Position numbers and translations under genes: made by a program. From the IMG/VR virus record IMGVR_UViG_3300037067_004081: DNA of 20,000 nt; one strand, 5' to 3'. Shown here piece by piece: positions 6,046 to 20,000 of the stretch; position 1 is the stretch's first letter; each line of letters starts with the position of its first letter. This stretch comes from an uncultured virus (IMG/VR IMGVR_UViG_3300037067_004081) (taxonomy: Duplodnaviria; Heunggongvirae; Uroviricota; Caudoviricetes). Under the pieces are notes generated by a model. The model did not search any database. It was not told where the DNA came from and saw only the letters and a program-made list of their open reading frames with translations.

Positions 6046-6498
6046 ATGGGATTTATCCTTGGGTTGTGGTCTAAAGCCACCCTACAATACCGAATTATTG
6101 CCATAGCTGTGCTCTTGGGTGCTCTTTTCCTTGGCTGGAGGTGGTATACAAATCGCATCTATGCGCAAGGCAAGGAAGCAGGCAGGGTGGAGATGAGCAA
6201 AGAGATGGTGAAGGCCAAAGAAAAAGAATGGGCCCAGAAGGATGCTGCCATTCAGGCAGATCGCACCAAGTTGGAAAAAGAGATTGATCAGAAGAGGATC
6301 ACATATGCTGCTCAATTTGCTGAGTTGGATAGACAGCGCACAGATACCAAAGTTGCTCTGAATAAATTTGCAAAGACATTGGACAACGAAAGGGAATTGA
6401 ACAATGCGCAAGTATACCGCATTCCTGCTGTTGAGCTTGATGGTGCCATCCGTGATTTGTCAAACAAGCTCGCCAGAGTCAACACCCCAACTAAATGA
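6046..6498 (+). CDS. Probable i-spanin (Rz-like)
   Basis: N-terminal TM (IIAIAVLLGALFLGW) followed by YAQGKEAG and a long coiled coil. The 3' end is overlapped by the next gene in another frame; 150 aa from ATG 6046. Confidence 0.6.
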   Translation: MGFILGLWSKATLQYRIIAIAVLLGALFLGWRWYTNRIYAQGKEAGRVEMSKEMVKAKEKEWAQKDAAIQADRTKLEKEIDQKRITYAAQFAELDRQRTDTKVALNKFAKTLDNERELNNAQVYRIPAVELDGAIRDLSNKLARVNTPTK

Positions 6499-6808
6499 GG
6501 GTGAGAAACGGCAAGTATTACTGCAGCTGATAGAATTGCAGACACTCCGGCAAAAGGTTCAGCTGTATGAAGAATTCTTCAGCAAGATGGATGAGCAGAA
6601 CAAAAGTGCTGTCTCCACATATCAGCAGGCCATAACAACAGAGAAGGAAATTGCTGATGTTACAATCAAGAGCAGAGATGCTGAGATTGTGATGCTGAAG
6701 GAAAAAGTTGATTTCTATAAGCAGCAATATGAACTCCTTGTCAAGAAAGGCCCAAGCTTCAAATGCATTATGAAGAAGATATTCACACTTGGTATTGGGC
6801 GGTGCTGA
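6404..6808 (+). CDS. Exported coiled-coil protein, possible o-spanin (Rz1-like)
   Basis: Overlaps the i-spanin-like gene by 95 nt. Signal peptide MRKYTAFLLLSLMVPSVIC has Cys19, but the lipobox is non-canonical. Confidence 0.5.
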   Translation: MRKYTAFLLLSLMVPSVICQTSSPESTPQLNEGEKRQVLLQLIELQTLRQKVQLYEEFFSKMDEQNKSAVSTYQQAITTEKEIADVTIKSRDAEIVMLKEKVDFYKQQYELLVKKGPSFKCIMKKIFTLGIGRC

Positions 6809-6809
6809 T

Positions 6810-7379
6810 ATGAGGATGCTGTTGATGGGCCTATTGATCATCTCATTCTGCAGCAGCGCTGTTGCTGGTGATGTTCATCTTGCCTGGGATGCCAGTATCA
6901 GTCCAGGTGTGACCAACTATCAGGTATATGTTGGAAGCTCATCAAGGTCATATGGAGTGCTAATAAAGATCGGTAACCAGTCAGCCTATACAGTATCAGG
7001 ATTGAAGCCTGGTACATATTTCTTTGCAGTGACCGCAATGGATGCTGCTGGAAATGAATCAGACTTCTCCAATGAAGTAAGCACCACCATTGCAGGCCCA
7101 GTTGAATTCAAGATCACCAGTCAGACTGCACAGATGAACTGGTATGGGGTGGTACTGCTGGCCACAACAAACACAAAGGCCACAGCAATTCTGCGCTATC
7201 AAAAGGTTGAACCCAATGCTGGGTGGACAACGATTGTTGCAAGCCAGACGCCAAGAACAGAACACAGAGCAATAATCTACATGGGGAAGTTCAAACCATC
7301 AGTCTATTGGCGATATGAATGGACCATCACAGATGACAAAGGGAACAAGGTGACTGGTGGCAGCACATTTCTGAGGTGA
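6810..7379 (+). CDS. Secreted fibronectin type III domain protein
   Basis: Signal peptide ending SSAVA. Fn3 pattern LAWD...Y.VY.G...YTVSGL.PGTYFFAVTA.D..GNES.FS, followed by a second beta-rich domain. Confidence 0.8.
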   Translation: MRMLLMGLLIISFCSSAVAGDVHLAWDASISPGVTNYQVYVGSSSRSYGVLIKIGNQSAYTVSGLKPGTYFFAVTAMDAAGNESDFSNEVSTTIAGPVEFKITSQTAQMNWYGVVLLATTNTKATAILRYQKVEPNAGWTTIVASQTPRTEHRAIIYMGKFKPSVYWRYEWTITDDKGNKVTGGSTFLR

Positions 7380-9622: not shown

Positions 9623-10229
9623 TCCAAGAGACAAGAGAATCAGATATATAGGAATTGCAGTTGATGTCAAGATAAGATACAGGGCACATCTGCGAGATAA
9701 TTATCAAAGTCCAAAAGCAAATTGGATAAAATCTCTTGCCAGTAAAGGATTGAAGCCCAAACTAAAAATTCTTGAAGTCACTATTGATAGAAATAGAGAG
9801 TTGTTCTGGATAAAGAAGTATGGAAGGGACAACTTACTTAATCTAACTGATGGTGGTGAAGGAACTCTTGGCAGAATTGTGTCCAAAGAAACAAGAGATA
9901 GAGTTAGCAGTAAGCTTGCTGGTGTGAAGCCTTGCAAGGAGGCATTCGAGAATTCCCCAGTATTGAAACCAGGTTGGTACCATACCAAGGAAGCAAGAAG
10001 AAGGATTGTGGTGGCACAGTTGGGAGGAAAAAGATCAGAAGCTGCAAAGCAAAGAATGAGAGAATCACAACTTGGGAAGGTTCTTTCTGCTGAACACCGG
10101 AAAAAGATAAGTGTTGCTGTAAATGGAAACAAAAGTCACCTTGGCTTAACATTTTCTGATGAATCAAAAAGGAAGATGAGTTTGGCCAGATCCAATTGGT
10201 GGAGGGCCAAGCGTGAGCAATCAAATTAA
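9582..10229 (+). CDS. Free-standing GIY-YIG homing endonuclease with NUMOD3-like repeats
   Basis: FIYALIDPR...RYIG, R..H, E.FWI and LLN.TDGGEG nuclease motifs. C-terminal repeats such as HTKEARRRI, SEAAKQRM, SAEHRKKIS and SDESKRKMS. Confidence 0.85.
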   Translation: MSNRKLNFIYALIDPRDKRIRYIGIAVDVKIRYRAHLRDNYQSPKANWIKSLASKGLKPKLKILEVTIDRNRELFWIKKYGRDNLLNLTDGGEGTLGRIVSKETRDRVSSKLAGVKPCKEAFENSPVLKPGWYHTKEARRRIVVAQLGGKRSEAAKQRMRESQLGKVLSAEHRKKISVAVNGNKSHLGLTFSDESKRKMSLARSNWWRAKREQSN

Positions 10230-11580
10230 ACCAGATAATTTTTCAGGGTTCGATCACGGATTTCTTGATAGCATTATTCACCTAATGATAGTTGATGTCA
10301 ATTTTCTTAGGGAATATTCTGGCTTTTTGAAACCAGAGCTATTCAATGATGACACTCGTGTTCAATTAGCATATGCTGCCTTGTATTTCTTCAAGGACTG
10401 TGGCTGTGCTGCTAAGAACTTATATTTTGATTATCTTGATCGGCTGGCAGCAGAGAACGGCTATTCAGATGCAAAGGTGCAGCTGCTGAAAGAAAAGGCA
10501 GCTGACATCATGGTGAACACCACTCCCAATTCGGAATACATAACCAAGAGGTTGAAGGATTATTTCGAATTTGCAAAGGTAAAGCTGCTGCACTACCAGC
10601 TGACAAGATCCATAGATGATGGTGATGTAAAAGGAGCAATTGACAGCGTGAAGGTGGCGCAGATTGAATTGAAGAAAGGAGAGGCTGCACCTGTTGACTT
10701 CTTTGAAACCATACCAACAAGGATCAACAGAAGGGAAGTGATTCATGCCCAGGAAGATGGTGTCTATCTCAACATACCAACGCTGGACAAAAACAACATA
10801 TATGCACACAACGGTGAGATTACTCTTTGCATAGCGCCCAGCAAAAGAGGCAAGTCAATCTGCCTCACTCATGCAGCCAAATGCGCTCTGTTGCAGAATC
10901 ATACAGTGCTGCATATCAGCTTGGAAAATCCTCTGCAGATGGTTGAGGACAGATATGATGCAATGCTATCAAATATTGAGATTGATTCATTGCGGATGGG
11001 ATCAGACAAGCTGCGCAACAGAGTAGAATACATCAGGGACATCATAAAAGGAAAGTTGTTTGTGCTTTGGCGAATGGCGAAGACATATTCAACATCAGAT
11101 CTCAGAGCAGACATTACAAGCCTGAGAAGGCAGGGGCACAAGATTGATGTTGTCATAATTGACTATGGTGAACTGATGAAACCAACCGGCAAGTTTGGTG
11201 GCGAAGCAGCAATGCGAGCAATAAGAGATGACATATTTGCCGGAATGCGCGCAGTGGCTTCTGATATGGGATTTGTCTGCATAACCGCACAGCAGACACC
11301 TCTCAAGAAAAGGAAGCAATTCAGAATCTATATGGAAGATGGTCAGGAAAGCTCGATGCCTGCCCAGCATTCCAGCTTGATCATCACGCTGAACCAGACA
11401 CCTGATGAAGAGAAGGCAAATGAAATGCGGCTGTATGTTGATGGATACTGGCATGGGGTCAGTGGAACCAGGGTTGGCGATATACTTGTTAAGCAGAACT
11501 TTGACAAGATGCAATTTTGTGTTAAAGAGATTCCAATCAGCCAGGGTGTTGAGGCTTCAAATTCGCAGGCAAATCCATGA
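10213..11580 (+). CDS. Replicative DNA helicase, DnaB-like (SF4)
   Basis: Walker A APSKRGKS, HISLE, Walker B VVIIDYGELM and TAQQ motifs. GTG start with a GGAGG RBS. Confidence 0.85.
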   Translation: MSNQIKPDNFSGFDHGFLDSIIHLMIVDVNFLREYSGFLKPELFNDDTRVQLAYAALYFFKDCGCAAKNLYFDYLDRLAAENGYSDAKVQLLKEKAADIMVNTTPNSEYITKRLKDYFEFAKVKLLHYQLTRSIDDGDVKGAIDSVKVAQIELKKGEAAPVDFFETIPTRINRREVIHAQEDGVYLNIPTLDKNNIYAHNGEITLCIAPSKRGKSICLTHAAKCALLQNHTVLHISLENPLQMVEDRYDAMLSNIEIDSLRMGSDKLRNRVEYIRDIIKGKLFVLWRMAKTYSTSDLRADITSLRRQGHKIDVVIIDYGELMKPTGKFGGEAAMRAIRDDIFAGMRAVASDMGFVCITAQQTPLKKRKQFRIYMEDGQESSMPAQHSSLIITLNQTPDEEKANEMRLYVDGYWHGVSGTRVGDILVKQNFDKMQFCVKEIPISQGVEASNSQANP

Positions 11581-12458
11581 ACCAAGGTGAAAGAATCATC
11601 ACAGGACAACCGAATGCAAGGCCTGGAGGCACCCCAGGAGAGTGGACAATTTTCTGCCCATGGCACGAGATGGGTGCAAGGCATATGCCTTCCTGCTGTG
11701 TCAATCTGGTGAAGGGTGTATTCATCTGCCACGGTTGTGGGATTGCAGGAAGGCTGGCCAAGCTGGTTGCCAAGCTGGAGAATGTTTCATACAAAGAGGC
11801 AATCGGTTTGGTTGGTGGTGAAGCAAGAGGAAGATTCAAGGATCAGGATGCAGCTGTGCAGTTGCCTGAAGAGTATCAGAACTTGCCTGCTGTTGGAAGG
11901 TTTGCATCAGAGGCGATTACCTATTTGCAGAACAGGAGAATCACCCAGAAACAAATTGAGCACCACCAGATTGGATTCTGCGGCACAGGCAAATATGCAA
12001 GAAGGATAATTGTGCCAATCACCCATGAAGGAAAGTTGATCAATTTCATCGCAAGGGATTGGACAGGAAGATCAGAACGCAAAGTGCTGAATCCTCCAGG
12101 CAGTCAGGCAATCCGATCAGTGTTTGGGTGGGATAGAGCCTGTAATTATGCAAGGTCAGTGGTGATCACAGAAGGCTGGGCTGATGCGCTTGCAGTAGAA
12201 AGAGTGTTGCAGAAAGACAGATACTTTTCAGATTGGGCTGCACTGGCGATTGGTGGCAAAGAGATAAGTGATGACAAGCTTCTGATGTTTACCAAGTTTG
12301 AAAAGTTTGTTGTCATGTTGGACTCTGCAGCCAGAGCAGATGCTGTGTTGGTTGGCAGGAAGCTGACAAGCTTCACAGACAAAATCAGAATTGTTAAGGT
12401 GTCTGGCAAAGATCCTGCTGAGACACCAGAGGAAGAAATCATGAGGTTGATACGATGA
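11577..12458 (+). CDS. DNA primase (CHC2 zinc finger + TOPRIM)
   Basis: CPWH...CHGCG zinc finger, YLQNRRI, RIIVPI, ARD, ITEGWADAL, and KDP near the C-terminus. Adjacent to the helicase. Confidence 0.85.
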   Translation: MNQGERIITGQPNARPGGTPGEWTIFCPWHEMGARHMPSCCVNLVKGVFICHGCGIAGRLAKLVAKLENVSYKEAIGLVGGEARGRFKDQDAAVQLPEEYQNLPAVGRFASEAITYLQNRRITQKQIEHHQIGFCGTGKYARRIIVPITHEGKLINFIARDWTGRSERKVLNPPGSQAIRSVFGWDRACNYARSVVITEGWADALAVERVLQKDRYFSDWAALAIGGKEISDDKLLMFTKFEKFVVMLDSAARADAVLVGRKLTSFTDKIRIVKVSGKDPAETPEEEIMRLIR

Positions 12459-12664
12459 AAAGACGATGGGTTGATCTGAATGACATTCTGACAAGAAAAG
12501 AAGCTGCTGATTTATATGGATGCAGCCTTCAAACGCTGCAATATCACATCGGAACAGGCAGACTGCAGCCTGTTTTCTCGAAAGGCAGTGTGAAATTGTT
12601 CCTCAGAAGCCAGATTTTGGCGCTGAAAGCTCTTAAATTACACGCTGGAAGGCCAAAATTATAA
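12455..12664 (+). CDS. Small helix-turn-helix DNA-binding protein (excisionase/MerR-like HTH)
   Basis: 69 aa with the pattern LTRKEAADLYGCS.QTL..HI.TGRL.P. ATGA-coupled to the primase. Confidence 0.75.
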   Translation: MKRRWVDLNDILTRKEAADLYGCSLQTLQYHIGTGRLQPVFSKGSVKLFLRSQILALKALKLHAGRPKL

Positions 12665-12770
12665 GAAAAAATCACTATTTACCAAAAATAATTTCTCCCA
12701 TAAATGCTGCAATTACATAAACTTGCCTGTCTGACCAAAAATAAATCGACAAAAGTTGAAAATAATCCTA

Positions 12771-12798
12771 TTGCTTTTGACGGGATTTCCGATAAGAT
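12771..12798 (+). promoter_or_regulatory. Candidate sigma70-type promoter for the accessory operon
   Basis: TTGCTT (12771-76), 16-nt spacer, TAAGAT (12793-98), with an overlapping TTGACG (12777-82) and an A-rich UP-like sequence upstream. Confidence 0.4.
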
Positions 12799-12809
12799 AG
12801 TCATAACTT

Positions 12810-13230
12810 GGAGGTGAGACGGAAACAAAAGCAAGACGGTGATGGTGGTTCTAAAGTACACCCACCGAAATAAAGAAAGCCAGCGGGAAAGTAAGAATCG
12901 GGTGTCCAGGCTTAGGGTCAGACGCCAAGAGAAGAAATCCCAAAAGCAGCGGAAAAATCCAGATAGAAGGCTCTGGAGATAAACAAAAGCCTAGACCAAA
13001 GCGGAAAATCGCTTAGGCGCAACTACTGAAGCCTGATGAGGGATAAGGTGGACCTAGACCAAGAATCACGGTGTAGGCAAGGCTGCTGACAAGCCTGGAG
13101 AAACAGACGATAGAATTGCGAAAGCACGCCAGTCAAGTAGGGTGGCTTGGCTCAAGGGTGTGATCCTTGAAAAACGGGTTGGATGCTGCGCAACTTCTTC
13201 TAAGGAGATGAAAAGAGAGATAATGAAAAT
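12810..13230 (+). ncRNA. Candidate large structured non-coding RNA or leader, family unassigned
   Basis: No credible ORF. A long-range helix TCCAGGCTT(AGG)GTCAG (12905-21)/CTGACAAGCCTGGA (13086-99) encloses several hairpins. Further hairpins downstream have G-U pairs and a GAAA tetraloop. Confidence 0.55.
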
Positions 13231-13303
13231 GCAGAGTGGCGGTGAAGCGAATAACTTCACCGTTAATGCGCTGGGCAAGGTGCCCATTCAGTCACAAGCC
13301 TGA
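13231..13303 (+). ncRNA. Twister ribozyme (circularly permuted, P5-open), copy 1
   Basis: GCA-GA-GTG-G; P1 CGGTGAAG/CTTCACCG; TTAA-TGC-GC; P3 TGGGCA/TGCCCA; P4 TCAG[TCACAAGC]CTGA. Predicted cut 13264/13265. Confidence 0.85.
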
Positions 13304-13318
13304 TAAGGAGAGAATGAA

Positions 13319-13573
13319 ATGAATCTATCATCAAAGACACCACCTGCAGTAAGAATGATGACAACTGAAGACTTCCTGAGTTTGGCAGAGCGGATTGGCA
13401 GAATATATCGTGCACCTGGTAGTGGTGCTGGTGAAGGTTACTTGAGAGCAAAAAGGGAAATCAAATTGCAGCTTGACCAAGCAGGAATGACCCCAGAAGA
13501 GTTTGACCGAACAATGAAGCCTATTGCAAAACGGCGCAGAGTGATTAAGCTTTCCAGAATGCAATTTGAATAA
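13319..13573 (+). CDS. Hypothetical protein (84 aa)
   Basis: AAGGAG RBS 8 nt upstream, directly after twister copy 1. Confidence 0.65.
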   Translation: MNLSSKTPPAVRMMTTEDFLSLAERIGRIYRAPGSGAGEGYLRAKREIKLQLDQAGMTPEEFDRTMKPIAKRRRVIKLSRMQFE

Positions 13574-13587
13574 GAAAGGATTTGGCC

Positions 13588-13686
13588 ATGGATATCGGAT
13601 CAATTATAATTTCGGTTGGTGCAGTCTTATTCCTTCTCAAGCTGTTGGGATCAATAAGAAGAGCAAAAAGCATTTCGAGCAGATAG
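13588..13686 (+). CDS. Small single-pass membrane peptide (32 aa; not in ORF track)
   Basis: AAAGGA RBS; MDIGSIIISVGAVLFLLKLLGSIRRAKSISSR*. Its TAG shares its G with the first base of twister copy 2, as in other cassettes. Confidence 0.65.
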   Translation: MDIGSIIISVGAVLFLLKLLGSIRRAKSISSR

Positions 13687-13750
13687 CAGAGTGGGGTTGC
13701 TTAGGCAACCTTAATGCGCTGGGCATATTGCCCAACAGTCACAAGCCTGT
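13686..13750 (+). ncRNA. Twister ribozyme, copy 2
   Basis: Same core; P1 GGTTGC/GCAACC, P3 TGGGCA/TGCCCA, P4 ACAG/CTGT. Predicted cut 13712/13713. Confidence 0.85.
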
Positions 13751-14477: not shown

Positions 14478-14479
14478 TA

Positions 14480-14550
14480 GCAGAGTGGACTTGGGAGCAA
14501 TCCCAAGTTTAATGCGCTGGGCAAGGTGCCCATTCAGTCACAAGCCTGAA
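14480..14550 (+). ncRNA. Twister ribozyme, copy 3
   Basis: P1 ACTTGGGA-GCAA-TCCCAAGT (GNRA loop), P3 TGGGCA/TGCCCA, P4 TTCAG/CTGAA. Predicted cut 14510/14511. Confidence 0.85.
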
Positions 14551-14563
14551 AAGGAGAAATGTT

Positions 14564-15238
14564 ATGGCATCAACCAGGAAAGCTTTGGAGTTGATTTATG
14601 GAATGTTCGCAAGGGCAATCGCTGATCTTGATCAGCGCAACAGCCTTCTTGTTCAGGCTGTGGGAATCATGGATCCAATCTGTGGTAGTTTAAGGCTATT
14701 GCAACAGCGTGATCCCAATGTCAAATACCTTGCTGATGATGCAGAGAAGCTTTGGAACAAGGCAAAGCTCTGCAGGCAACGGGCAATGGGCACCAACTTC
14801 CCTGAAGAGAAGGAAGTGAGCCTGAGAATGGCCTTGAAGTTCATGGGAAGATTTGCAGCAAAACTGAATCCGCCCAGTATTGATGATGCAATCCTTATGC
14901 TGGAAAGCAATCAGAAGGGTGGCAAGGCTTCAAAGGCACCAAAAGCTCCAAAGGCAACCGGGCAGCCAAAAGCGCCAACAGTTCCTGGCAACTATCCTTC
15001 AAACATTCCTCCATTGGGCCCAGACGGAATTCCTGCATGGAAACCTGGGACATCAGCCAGGATCTGCGCTGATATCCTGATGGCGCAGGATTCAATAAGC
15101 AAGATGGATGCAAGGAAAGCAGCACACGCTGCTGGCTTCAAATCAGATAATGTTGATGCCCGTATCAATATGGTTGCTGGCTTTCTGGTAAAGTTTGGGA
15201 AGCTGAAGAGAACCAAGGTTGGTTGGGTTAAAGCATAG
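14564..15238 (+). CDS. Hypothetical protein with a DUF2786-like segment, Pro/Lys linker and possible C-terminal winged helix
   Basis: AAGGAG RBS. KAKLCRQRAMGTNFPEEKEVSLRMALKFM loosely resembles DUF2786; linker KAPKAPKA; basic C-terminus. Confidence 0.7.
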   Translation: MASTRKALELIYGMFARAIADLDQRNSLLVQAVGIMDPICGSLRLLQQRDPNVKYLADDAEKLWNKAKLCRQRAMGTNFPEEKEVSLRMALKFMGRFAAKLNPPSIDDAILMLESNQKGGKASKAPKAPKATGQPKAPTVPGNYPSNIPPLGPDGIPAWKPGTSARICADILMAQDSISKMDARKAAHAAGFKSDNVDARINMVAGFLVKFGKLKRTKVGWVKA

Positions 15239-15308
15239 CAGAGTGGGGCTGGAGTCATCCAGCCTTAATGCGCTGGCGGGATTGTCCTGCCAATAGTCAC
15301 AAGCCTAT
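15238..15308 (+). ncRNA. Twister ribozyme, copy 4
   Basis: P1 GGCTGGA/TCCAGCC, P3 TGGCGGGA/TCCTGCCA (one G-U), P4 ATAG/CTAT. Predicted cut 15266/15267. Confidence 0.85.
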
Positions 15309-15324
15309 AACAAGGAGAAATCAA

Positions 15325-15684
15325 ATGGGAACAGTAATAGTTGAATGCGATGCTTGCCACACCAAGAACAGAATGCAAGAAGACAGAATCGGAACAGCAC
15401 GCTGCGGCAAATGCGGCAATCCTCTTATGGATGCATATACAGATCAATTTGGTGGCAGTGAAGAGGATGAAGAGTTGGAATTTGATGATGACGATGATGC
15501 TGACAGTGAAGATGATGAAGATGACCCAAGATGCTTTGGGTGTGGTCATGATTGGAAGAGTAATTGGTCAGAAGATGATCTGGCCACAGTAAAAATAAAG
15601 GGTGTTTCAAAGGGCATTAAAACTGTTCAAGTCTGCCCAGAGTGCATGGATGAAGTCAAGCAGCAATATAAGGTAGTCGAATAG
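15325..15684 (+). CDS. Double zinc-ribbon protein with acidic linker (119 aa)
   Basis: AAGGAG RBS before ATG 15325. CDAC..KNR...CGKC resembles the TrxC N-terminal Zn ribbon; then a D/E tract and CFGC...CPEC. Confidence 0.75.
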   Translation: MGTVIVECDACHTKNRMQEDRIGTARCGKCGNPLMDAYTDQFGGSEEDEELEFDDDDDADSEDDEDDPRCFGCGHDWKSNWSEDDLATVKIKGVSKGIKTVQVCPECMDEVKQQYKVVE

Positions 15685-15752
15685 CAGAGTGGGCCCAGGA
15701 ACACAACCTGGGCTTAATGCGCTGGCAAATGTGCCACTAGTCACAAGCCTAG
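15684..15752 (+). ncRNA. Twister ribozyme, copy 5
   Basis: P1 GCCCAGG/CCTGGGC, P3 TGGCA/TGCCA, P4 CTAG/CTAG. Predicted cut 15715/15716. Confidence 0.85.
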
Positions 15753-15768
15753 AAAAAGGAGAAACCAA

Positions 15769-16200
15769 ATGGGAACTTGTTCAGCTATAATAAATGATAT
15801 GAGCGCAGCAGGTGGATGTAGCCTTGATTTTGACTCTTCTGAATATGAAAGAGAATTGACAGAGGAAGAGTTTGCCCAGCAGGAAAAGAGGCGCAGGCGC
15901 AACCGACAAATACAGAGAAGCCACAATCGGATATACAAGAGCAAGAGGAAAGCTTTGATTGCTGCCATGGGCGGTGAGTGTGTTGAGTGTGGAAAGAAAA
16001 GAAAGCTTGAATTCCATCATCCTGATGGACGTGATTGGAATGTCAGATCAATGAACCAATGGCGCAGAATAAAGAAGTATGAAGAGGAATGGGCTGCAGG
16101 CAAAATTGAGCTGCTGTGCAGATCCTGTAATGGCGGCATCAATCCGAAAAAGGAAAGGGAAGAGGAAGAAGCATATGATGAATATGCAGACTGTGAGTGA
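15769..16200 (+). CDS. HNH endonuclease-like protein
   Basis: CVECG....LEFHH...LLCRSCN zinc-finger HNH pattern; AAGGAG RBS. Confidence 0.75.
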   Translation: MGTCSAIINDMSAAGGCSLDFDSSEYERELTEEEFAQQEKRRRRNRQIQRSHNRIYKSKRKALIAAMGGECVECGKKRKLEFHHPDGRDWNVRSMNQWRRIKKYEEEWAAGKIELLCRSCNGGINPKKEREEEEAYDEYADCE

Positions 16201-16366
16201 TGTTATCTTTATTGGCACCCAAGAGCAGTCTGGTGGCCTTCCTGGGTTGCCGATGTATAATGACAAGGTGACAGGAACCACCTTTGTTGTTGGGCCAGGA
16301 GAGACCCTGGAGCAAGCAGTTGAAAGGAAGCGGAAACAATTTGAGGAATATGGAAAGGAGTTTTGA
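16175..16366 (+). CDS. Hypothetical protein (about 60 aa; start uncertain)
   Basis: GAGG upstream of ATG 16175. Fills the gap between the HNH gene and the next gene, and its stop abuts the next ATG. Confidence 0.55.
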   Translation: MMNMQTVSDVIFIGTQEQSGGLPGLPMYNDKVTGTTFVVGPGETLEQAVERKRKQFEEYGKEF

Positions 16367-16714
16367 ATGTCAGGGAACAGGAATAGAGAGCAGTCAAACT
16401 CAATAACCCAACTGGTGAAGATTGTTTGCAGGGAAGTTGTTGAGGAAGTTCTGAAGGAAAAGGAAAGAACAGCGAAACAGGAAACAGACCCAACCTGGAC
16501 ACCGGATAAGCTTGGAGCGCTGGGCAATGTCAAGGACAGCGTGCTGCCTGAAAGGGCTGGCCATGATTGGTCACAGGAAGAAGACAATTTTTTGCTTCTG
16601 GAGATGGACAGAGCAATTGAAGCTATTGCCCAGAATCATAAGCGGAAACCTGGTGCCATTCGTGCTAGGGTGGGCAGGAAGGAACTTTTCAGGTGCAGGC
16701 CTGATAGTTTATAA
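16367..16714 (+). CDS. Hypothetical protein with Myb/SANT-like HTH C-terminus
   Basis: AAGGAG RBS; pattern AGHDWSQEED..LL...IEAIA..HKR.PGAIRAR. Confidence 0.7.
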   Translation: MSGNRNREQSNSITQLVKIVCREVVEEVLKEKERTAKQETDPTWTPDKLGALGNVKDSVLPERAGHDWSQEEDNFLLLEMDRAIEAIAQNHKRKPGAIRARVGRKELFRCRPDSL

Positions 16715-16721
16715 TAGAATT

Positions 16722-16790
16722 GCAGAGTGGGCCCAGGAGCACAACCTGGGCTTAATGCGCTGGCCTTTGGCCAATCAGTCACAAGCCTGA
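16722..16790 (+). ncRNA. Twister ribozyme, copy 6
   Basis: P1 GCCCAGG/CCTGGGC, P3 TGGCC/GGCCA, P4 TCAG/CTGA. Predicted cut 16753/16754. Confidence 0.85.
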
Positions 16791-16800
16791 ATCCAGTATA

Positions 16801-16927
16801 GACAAATGCAGCCTAAAGCTGATATGTCAAAATGTCTTCTCCAGGTGACTGAGAAGGCGCATTCAGTTGAGCAGAGGCAGCTGCTGATTCGATAATCAGA
16901 AGGTGGCACAGCGTCCACCACCTCTGC
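16801..16927 (+). ncRNA. Candidate structured RNA downstream of twister 6
   Basis: Hairpin TGTCTTCTC/GAGAAGGCG (16833-59, with G-U pairs). Three-way junction GCAGAGG/CCTCTGC (16871-927) enclosing CTGATT/AATCAG and GGTGG/CCACC. Confidence 0.45.
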
Positions 16928-16956
16928 AGCAATCATATATATAAGGAGATAACAAA

Positions 16957-17532
16957 ATGGCGTCCATAGAAGAAAGAAAAGTGAAGTTGCTTAGGGAATT
17001 GCGATCTGAGCTGATGTGCAGAGGCTTGATGGTTGCATCGGATTTGGGGAGCGTTGATGGCATGGCGATAAAGTTTAACATCATGGTTGATGGCATGGTG
17101 CTGATTGCCCAATGGGTGACAAAGAGTGGCATCCACCGCTATCACTACAATGATCTTGGTGTTGAACCGCTTGCCAACTTCCTAGTCAAGACTCTTGATG
17201 AAGCTTATAGGCCAATAGTCATTGACAGAACAAAGTCTGCAGCTGTGCCTCCACAGGCCAAACCGCAGCAGAAGAAACATCCGATCACTGGCCCAGGATT
17301 TGTGATGGGTGATAAGCCAAAGCAGAAGTTCACAGGTGCTAGGGTGGCAGATCCTGTCACCATTAGTCGTGAGCAATATCAGGAATATATCGAACTGAAA
17401 CAGAGAGCAGAGAATGGGGTGTTCATATCCAACCAAGCTTTTGAAGATATCAAATATGGATACATCCCGCCAAAGCAAAGGGAAGAGTTGAACCGGCAAA
17501 TGAATCATCTGATAAGGAGTATGTCAGTATGA
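16957..17532 (+). CDS. Hypothetical protein (191 aa)
   Basis: TAAGGAG RBS; ATGA overlap with the helicase gene. Confidence 0.75.
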   Translation: MASIEERKVKLLRELRSELMCRGLMVASDLGSVDGMAIKFNIMVDGMVLIAQWVTKSGIHRYHYNDLGVEPLANFLVKTLDEAYRPIVIDRTKSAAVPPQAKPQQKKHPITGPGFVMGDKPKQKFTGARVADPVTISREQYQEYIELKQRAENGVFISNQAFEDIKYGYIPPKQREELNRQMNHLIRSMSV

Positions 17533-19285: not shown

Positions 19286-19642
19286 ATGATGCCAAAAAAG
19301 GCTTCAGAAGCAGCTCACCATATAAGACTGAATCCACCTCCACAGGCTTGCTATCGTGGTTTGATATATAAGCCTGTTGGAATTCTTTTGATCAATACAC
19401 CATTCTGGTGTTACCCAGGGATGCAACATCTGTCTGGGGTGGTTTTGTTCCAATCTCTTGGTTCAACTACTGTCCGAATGAGGATGACACGCCCAATCAC
19501 TCATGAGGAATATGTTGATGACATAGGCATATCCACAGGGTCACTTGTACTTGTTGAAGAGGTAGAATATGAAAGACAAAAAACCATTCATCCTAGAAAC
19601 CTATGTGGAAACGCTGGCATGGAAGGCTTTCCAACGCTCTAA
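19286..19642 (+). CDS. Hypothetical protein (118 aa)
   Basis: AAGGGG RBS. Fills the gap after the helicase and overlaps the next gene by 74 nt. Confidence 0.5.
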   Translation: MMPKKASEAAHHIRLNPPPQACYRGLIYKPVGILLINTPFWCYPGMQHLSGVVLFQSLGSTTVRMRMTRPITHEEYVDDIGISTGSLVLVEEVEYERQKTIHPRNLCGNAGMEGFPTL

Positions 19643-20000
19643 AGATCCTGCAAAGGATAGGGAAGACTTTATGCAGGATGCTCAGATTGCCATTCTAAAG
19701 GCTGTGCGGCATTGGAATATTGATGGTGCATCAGTTGATACATATTGCATAACAGCTGTGGTCAATACTCTCAGGAAATCAATCAACAAGGAAAGGAGAA
19801 GACACAATCTTTATCAGAATGAAGTGAGAGATGAAATAGGCAAAAGCATAGTTTTGGAGGGCAGCTATCGTCTTGATTATTTCTACATCAAGGTGCTCGA
19901 TGTTCTTCAGAGTAAAGGGAACATGAGAGCAAAGAACCTGATTGAAGTCTTCTTATCAAAATGCGATGATCTGCAGAATTGCTCAATGAAGCAACTGCGT
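19569..20000 (+). CDS. Phage sigma70-family factor-like protein (partial, runs off window; not in ORF track)
   Basis: GAGGT RBS and 144 open codons: MKDKKPFILETYVETLAWKAF...DREDFMQDAQIAILKAVRHWNIDGASVDTYCITAVVNTLRKSINKE, matching the region-2 pattern EDL.Q...+.L.KA...+....+.TY.....N. Confidence 0.65.
   Translation, partial: MKDKKPFILETYVETLAWKAFQRSKDPAKDREDFMQDAQIAILKAVRHWNIDGASVDTYCITAVVNTLRKSINKERRRHNLYQNEVRDEIGKSIVLEGSYRLDYFYIKVLDVLQSKGNMRAKNLIEVFLSKCDDLQNCSMKQLR

Follow-up and report, generated by a model that had tools for sequence, protein, structure and literature searches.

The window, i.e. the whole 20,000-nt stretch of DNA that was analysed, carries every credible gene on the + strand (Table 1). 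A gene for a tail-associated protein, lysis and baseplate genes and a homing endonuclease gene precede those for a DnaB-like helicase, a primase and a small helix-turn-helix (HTH) protein, the last of which is the final gene ahead of a 654-nt gap (12665-13318) with no credible gene. The gap comprises an AT-rich spacer, a leader with a presumed start near 12810, and a twister ribozyme (twister 1), and the first array gene begins 16 nt past the ribozyme. A run of small genes, mostly without an assigned function, follows, and then come genes for an SNF2 helicase and a sigma-70 region-2 protein. No tRNA gene was found in the window.

Table 1 Features of the window and helices of the conserved domain (positions in the window).
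Feature	Position	Strand	Remarks
Tail-associated protein, 1516 aa		+	Peptidase M14 and lectin domains; lysis and baseplate genes next
Homing endonuclease gene		+	Between lysis/baseplate genes and helicase gene
DnaB-like helicase	10213-11580	+	
Primase	11577-12458	+	
HTH protein, 69 aa	12455-12664	+	Pfam HTH_17, E 1.5e-06; PHROG excisionase-like, E 4.5e-08
AT-rich spacer	12665-12809	+	Presumed promoter region
Variable 5' half of leader	12810-13019	+	Hairpins 12844-66, 12958-77, 12989-13018
Conserved 3' domain	13020-13205 (186 nt)	+	Seven helices
H1 outer	13023-27/47-51		
H1 inner	13032-34/39-41		
H2	13053-60/70-77		
H3	13078-84/92-98		
PL (closing helix)	13112-20/13189-98		RNAalifold adds 13109-10/13199-200
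H4	13132-38/45-51		
H5	13152-57/65-70		
Purine-rich spacer, domain to ribozyme	13206-13229 (24 nt)	+	Not conserved with L006
Twister 1, type P5	13230-13303	+	Rfam RF02684, 46.1 bits (gathering score 37.6), full model 1-58
First array gene, 84 aa	13319-13573	+	No family; AAGGAGA ahead of ATG
Twister 2	13685-13750	+	
Twister	14479-14549	+	
Twister (sixth found)	15237-15308	+	43.5 bits, above gathering score
Twister	15683-15752	+	
Twister (last in window)	16721-16790	+	
Sigma-70 region-2 protein gene	19569-20000		Truncated by window end

The Rfam scan at the gathering threshold returned five type-P5 twisters, all on the + strand, and a sixth appeared only in the permissive scan. The array twisters between 13685 and 16790 score 43.5-45.6 bits, all above the gathering score, with small genes between them. 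For five of the six, a ribosome-binding site and start codon follow 15-26 nt after the twister end, the exception being the last one in the window. With the sixth twister found lying 17 nt before the ATG at 15325, the start assigned to ORF 15268-15684 is probably too far upstream. Twister 1 was identified by the RF02684 model directly 3' of the leader, where a first-pass annotation made from the sequence had placed it. Twisters cut at the U-A step after stem P1 (PMC5408937). Mapped on the cmscan alignment of this permuted form, that step would place the twister 1 cut between U13264 and A13265, the same end point as the RNA 3' end at 13264 predicted earlier.

The leader was confirmed to be purine-rich (66.2% purine over 12810-13229). 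The strand is strongly purine-skewed in composition, and no skew inflection was found. Open + frames in 12665-13229 reach at most 57 codons, each + frame contains 8-16 stops, and no frame-specific peptide common to the leader and its relatives was found, so the earlier statement that there is no credible ORF stands. Similarity to relatives shows in all frames at once; the indels in the alignment of the 3' domain with that of a related phage (L006, see below) measure 3, 1, 2 and 1 nt, i.e. they are not consistently multiples of three; and the mismatches are spread evenly over the three codon positions (26/29/22). Together, these three features exclude a coding reading, and a small protein gene was ruled out by the many stops, the non-triplet indels and the lack of frame-specific similarity. 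An AAGGAG-ATG start lies in the purine-rich spacer between domain and ribozyme and is absent from L006.

Folding of the single sequence does not discriminate, as the z-scores are nearly equal on the + strand (-2.56) and on the reverse complement (-2.82). The complementary segments listed in the first-pass annotation all exist at their assigned positions. The repeat CCTAGACCAA is likewise present twice, at 12990 and 13053, but a repeated 10-mer was equalled or exceeded in 36 of 200 shuffles, so its recurrence is not beyond chance. Two short copies of the twister 3' end (13029-41 and 13089-97, compared with 13294-13308), which read ACAAGCCTG and AAGCCTGAT[G/A]AGG, occur within the leader, and the spacer at 13201-13231 resembles the ribosome-binding region after twister 1. 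These likenesses may go back to earlier insertions of ribozymes or cassettes, or may have arisen by chance.

In a search of 12600-13350 against Rfam 15 at E<=10, only the twister reached its cut-off; five other matches scored 11-23 bits against cut-offs of 45-88. No covariance-model match was obtained for ROOL and GOLLD (which we take to be RF03087 and RF01998), HEARO, OLE, raiA or the other Rfam 15 families. The leader thus matches no Rfam family, which agrees with the earlier statement that its class could not be assigned, and ROOL and GOLLD are precedents rather than matches. Three related contigs (L006-L008) yielded only twisters from Rfam at E<=0.01, and blastn of the gap against 50,697 GenBank phage records gave no match.

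The primase provided access to related phages. As a single query it returned no relatives, and a scan of genome contigs gave only two unrelated loci. Among 5.8 billion proteins, only seven relatives were found at E<=1e-10 (30-58% identity). Six of them (39-58% identical) were aligned with the query and led to four useful loci, namely the window's own contig (L016), an 81-kb contig (L006, primase identity 55%), L007 (same sequence as L017, 50%) and L008 (38%), all with twister arrays on the same strand. The whole records of L006, L007 and L008 (G002, G003, G004) contain 15, 11 and 15 twisters, and the nearest record of the window phage contains six. In each relative the type-P5 twisters form a single, unusually dense 6-9 kb cluster on one strand.

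The order primase, small gene in the HTH-gene position, non-coding gap and first twister recurs in L006 (gap 6125-6782; twister 6783-6862, 37.4 bits, just below the cut-off) and in L007 (gap 6094-6901; twister 6902-6979). A non-coding gap between the HTH gene and the first twister is present in all three retrieved phages whose primases are at least 50% identical. The leader occupies the same place in only two related phages, L006 and L007, whose primases are 50-55% identical to that of the window, while the corresponding position in L008 has no similarity to the window, L006 or L007. Leader similarity among the phages is modular. The window and L006 are 60% identical over 326 nt of the 3' part, and L006 and L007 are 69% identical over 157 nt of the 5' part; the L007 leader thus shares 5' blocks with L006 without the 3' domain, and blastn gave no hit between the window leader and L007.

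The 3' domain (13020-13205) was aligned with L006 6575-6759 using MAFFT, and a 43-pair structure was drawn on the alignment, in which PL encloses hairpins H4 and H5 and is preceded by H1, H2 and H3. In this comparison of two sequences, 42 of the 43 pairs are kept in L006, 19 are changed on both sides and one is broken. None of 500 shuffles matched the real structure on any of five measures, and when the 3' partners were slid by 1-3 columns only 0-3 double-changed pairs and 33-51% pairing remained, compared with 98.8% for the real structure. Since H3 and PL had been drawn with L006 in view, an independent check matters here: RNAalifold, run unaided on the same alignment, returned the same helices with 45 pairs, 20 of them compensatory. 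Single-sequence minimum free energy (MFE) folds contain H1, H2 and H4 in both the window and L006, and in L006 also H3 and H5. The covariation supports the previously noted hairpins at 13053-77, 13131-52 and 13152-70, and a covariation check against homologues, as the first-pass annotation had proposed, came out in favour of a structured RNA in this two-sequence comparison.

Alignment z-scores against L006 were 15 for the domain, 9.7 for the HTH gene, 2.7 for the 5' half of the leader and 1.7 for the upstream spacer, which barely exceeds shuffles. The window and L006 have the same H5 loop, GUGUGAU, though five of the six H5 pairs are changed. The H4 loop differs in its first base alone (AGGGUG in the window, GGGGUG in L006) on a stem with three compensatory pairs, and the joiner GAAACAGACG is identical in the two. 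Each sequence has four G-U pairs, and a minus-strand reading keeps only 39 and 38 of the 43 pairs; the fold is therefore specific to the + strand. T13138C, which among the differences listed for the ~90% variant runs is the sole one inside the domain, converts a U-G pair of H4 to C-G, as in L006. As far as sequence comparison reaches, this pattern shows that 13020-13205 folds as + strand RNA into a conserved multi-helix domain. The unpaired columns of the domain were searched for a conserved pseudoknot of at least four pairs in both sequences, and none was found. A hammerhead-like CUGAUGA at 13033-39 was rejected, as it is not kept in L006.

The 5' half is of a different kind. The ~90% relative in run X6 has 10 nt instead of 12864-12949, and a longer GAAA-loop hairpin, as in L006 and L007, stands in place of 13004-13014. 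L006 and L007 have hairpins at positions matching the 5' half, together with inserted GAAA-loop hairpins. The proposed helices TCCAGA/TCTGGA and GCCTA../..TAGGC survive as hairpins at matching positions in relatives, with little covariation. The X6 deletion and insertion and the hairpin differences between phages indicate that the 5' half is a variable, modular set of hairpins with indels between phages, and that the 3' domain is the constrained part. The ~455-nt structured RNA first described is thus upheld in its conserved fold and narrowed in extent, since only ~186 nt are well conserved.

Two of the helices assigned earlier were not retained. The long-range helix 12905-21/13086-99, which was thought to close a multibranch domain, has a duplex energy of -21.4 kcal/mol in the window and lies within the MFE structure; for the window alone, forcing H3 costs 2.7 kcal/mol relative to it, so the window RNA may adopt another fold. 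In L006, however, the best far partner of the equivalent 3' arm reaches -9.7 kcal/mol, and this arm forms the local hairpin H3 with three compensatory pairs, while the X6 relative without 12864-12949 also has no 5' arm. The hairpin TGC-GAAA-GCA (13117-26) shares bases with the 5' side of PL, a covarying helix, and both cannot form together.

In the otherwise poorly aligned 5' region, GUACACCC is present at 12856-12863 of the window and 6331-6338 of L006, and it is retained up to its final base in the X6 deletion variant. As it is complementary to the H4 loop GGGUG (13140-13144), a long-range contact between the two can be hypothesized.

Searches for further carriers point to a rare family, so that the comparisons are limited in their statistics as well as in their reach. 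In IMG/VR, three phage contigs carry the leader. Exact 29-nt and twister-derived patterns had no hits there; among 80 of the 115 stretches that matched a looser twister pattern, only those from the contigs of L006 and L007 had several matches; with a strict three-motif pattern, nothing but the L006 contig was recovered; and of the 33 stretches matching a family-block pattern, only the L006 and L007 contigs were related by blastn. The two training sequences of a covariance model of the domain (R1) scored 213 and 206 bits; the model found one copy in each of these phages, no other copy, and none in the L007 and L008 phages. With filters off, the best E-value on L007, L008, L018 and L019 was 0.71, with no match in a leader. 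A loop-motif pattern matched at least 116 stretches, and R1 gave nothing below E 0.77 on 100 of these (L143-L242). Public runs X2 and X4 contain near-identical sequence and may be the window's own source; variant leader forms from ~90% relatives occur in three runs, X2 (minor form), X5 (partial) and X6. Run X5, labelled cDNA and flagged as probably DNA, covers only 13060-13322 in two 151-nt contigs.

The spacer upstream of the leader is AT-rich (GC 0.34 at 12600-12799). It shares GAAAATAATCCT with L007, and AAGATRRT is common to the window, L006 and L007. A consensus scan of the + strand from 12400 to 13400 found no sigma-70-like promoter, and the candidate promoter reported earlier ahead of the leader was not seen; nor did this range contain a terminator-like site on the + strand. 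With no + strand promoter consensus, transcription of the upstream genes could continue through the stretch. L007 has a strong intrinsic-terminator-like hairpin (6130-6159, 13 pairs and a T run) directly behind the small gene in the HTH-gene position and ahead of its leader, suggesting that the L007 leader starts a new transcript. No equivalent was seen in the window or L006. The sigma-70 region-2 protein of the phage might read a presumed non-consensus promoter before the leader.

These comparisons indicate that the leader is a real, rare and uncatalogued structured RNA heading a twister-delimited gene array. We consider it probable that the stretch represents the non-coding head of a phage transcription unit whose genes are separated by type-P5 twisters, and the first ribozyme most likely cuts the leader RNA free. 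Transcription would start near 12810, and the AT-rich spacer would hold its promoter, either a phage-specific one or one that departs from the consensus. The twister 1 cut would then free an RNA of ~455 nt that ends in the 5' part of the ribozyme with a 2',3'-cyclic phosphate, and the first mRNA would begin with a 5'-OH. The 5' half may serve as a variable scaffold of exchangeable hairpins.

As to function, we infer with some hesitation that the freed leader may be a self-contained, stable RNA particle, whose 3' domain would act after release as a binding or tertiary-fold module. Three features favour such a product: the ribozyme would sever the leader from everything downstream, the loops and joiners are conserved in the manner of a binding or tertiary module, and the leader would be the promoter-proximal product. 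A more far-reaching proposal, possible but rather doubtful, is a new class of ribozyme-released phage RNA particles of ~450 nt, in which the 186-nt domain would bind a host or phage factor and which would form the fixed head module of the twister-delimited array, with the repeated twisters both processing the transcript and serving as crossover points at which gene cassettes are swapped.

Another reading, which we regard as less than probable although worth serious attention, is a cis-acting operon leader. While still attached, the RNA would modify the polymerase or recruit factors for read-through of the ribozyme hairpins, and would then be discarded, in the way of put- or boxA/nut-type antitermination. 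The put element of HK022 and nut/boxA are ~70-nt two-hairpin or short linear elements that remain tethered to polymerase. By description, the leader is like them a folded, promoter-proximal RNA at the start of a long operon, but it differs in its length of about 450 nt and in its predicted severing by a ribozyme. An action in cis is consistent with three observations: the leader always heads an array of 6-9 kb with 11-15 twisters, in L007 it lies past a terminator, and the phage encodes a sigma-70 region-2 protein. Against it, even at E<=10 none of the antitermination or leader RNAs catalogued in Rfam was matched, no + strand terminator-like site follows the leader, and the twister would cut the tether 24 nt after the domain. 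A riboswitch or attenuator leader was rejected because 12400-13400 contains no terminator-like site on the + strand and the ribosome-binding site of the first gene lies past the predicted ribozyme cut.

It is unlikely that the leader is a structured 3' untranslated tail of the helicase-primase-HTH message, shielding the mRNA from 3' exonucleases after the cut. Such a tail would fit the single coding strand and the fact that, in the window, neither a sigma-70-like + promoter nor a terminator separates the HTH gene from the leader, but in L007 a strong terminator separates the two, the leader is preceded by an AT-rich spacer with motifs common across phages, and 650 nt is long for a protective tail. 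Still more improbable is a functionless spacer made of decayed cassette or ribozyme remnants that folds by chance; the two twister-3'-end copies, the poorly conserved 5' half and the 86 nt that are dispensable in a relative are in line with this, whereas 19 compensatory pairs, a joiner and a hairpin loop identical in both phages, and the high z-score of the 3' domain next to a flanking spacer at noise level argue against it. An element that acts as DNA, for instance an origin of replication or a site of recombination with the hairpins as DNA structures or protein-binding repeats, is hardly credible despite the neighbouring helicase and primase genes and the purine skew, given the strand-specific fold with its G-U pairs, the absence of a skew inflection and of iteron-like repeat families beyond chance, and compensatory changes that keep pairing and not sequence.

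Compared with known systems, the released RNA that we tentatively favour has its nearest counterparts in ROOL and GOLLD, large ornate RNAs of phages and prophages (PMC12286853, PMC5737381). Like these, the leader is large, phage-borne, non-coding and multi-helical. It differs in its conserved core of ~186 nt, the lack of tRNA genes nearby and its place at an operon head ending in a ribozyme. The setting, several self-cleaving ribozymes by phage genes, is that of bacterial and phage loci rich in ribozymes, in which the twister, hammerhead, twister-sister, pistol and hatchet classes cluster near phage genes and have been proposed to process polycistronic transcripts (PMC6765202). The available sections of that review treat the ribozymes themselves and describe no conserved large leader at the head of an array. 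In Rfam, the leader domain matches none of the ribozyme families.

What self-cleaving ribozymes do in bacteria and phages is still described as largely open (PMC6765202). Here, a whole operon is built from twisters, six in the window and 11-15 per relative, and its first product would be a conserved folded RNA, not an mRNA. Should the leader RNA act alone, it would join the small set of known large phage RNAs as a further family and would provide a defined case in which a ribozyme forms the 3' end of an RNA with a function; should it act in cis, it would show how twister arrays get transcribed. Either way, the locus offers a compact system for asking what purpose twister arrays serve.

The array itself differs between strains. 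In the X6 relative, 328 other letters replace 13312-13701, minor contigs in X4 and X5 diverge just past 13311-13322, and in contigs of X2 and X4 position 14550 joins sequence that comes after the twister end at 16790 in the window. The gene cassettes between twisters (13311-13702 and 14550-16792) vary among strains, and the ribozyme copies, judged by these junctions, look like crossover points for cassette exchange. Past the 84-aa gene, an unlisted 32-codon ORF (13588-13686) would encode a hydrophobic peptide; it extends to twister 2, where its stop codon shares bases with the start of that ribozyme. After the last twister and ahead of the ATG at 16957, a stretch of 166 nt (16791-16956) has no evident gene and contains nested complementary segments, GCAGAGG...CCTCTGC around two hairpins, and it may be a second structured RNA element.
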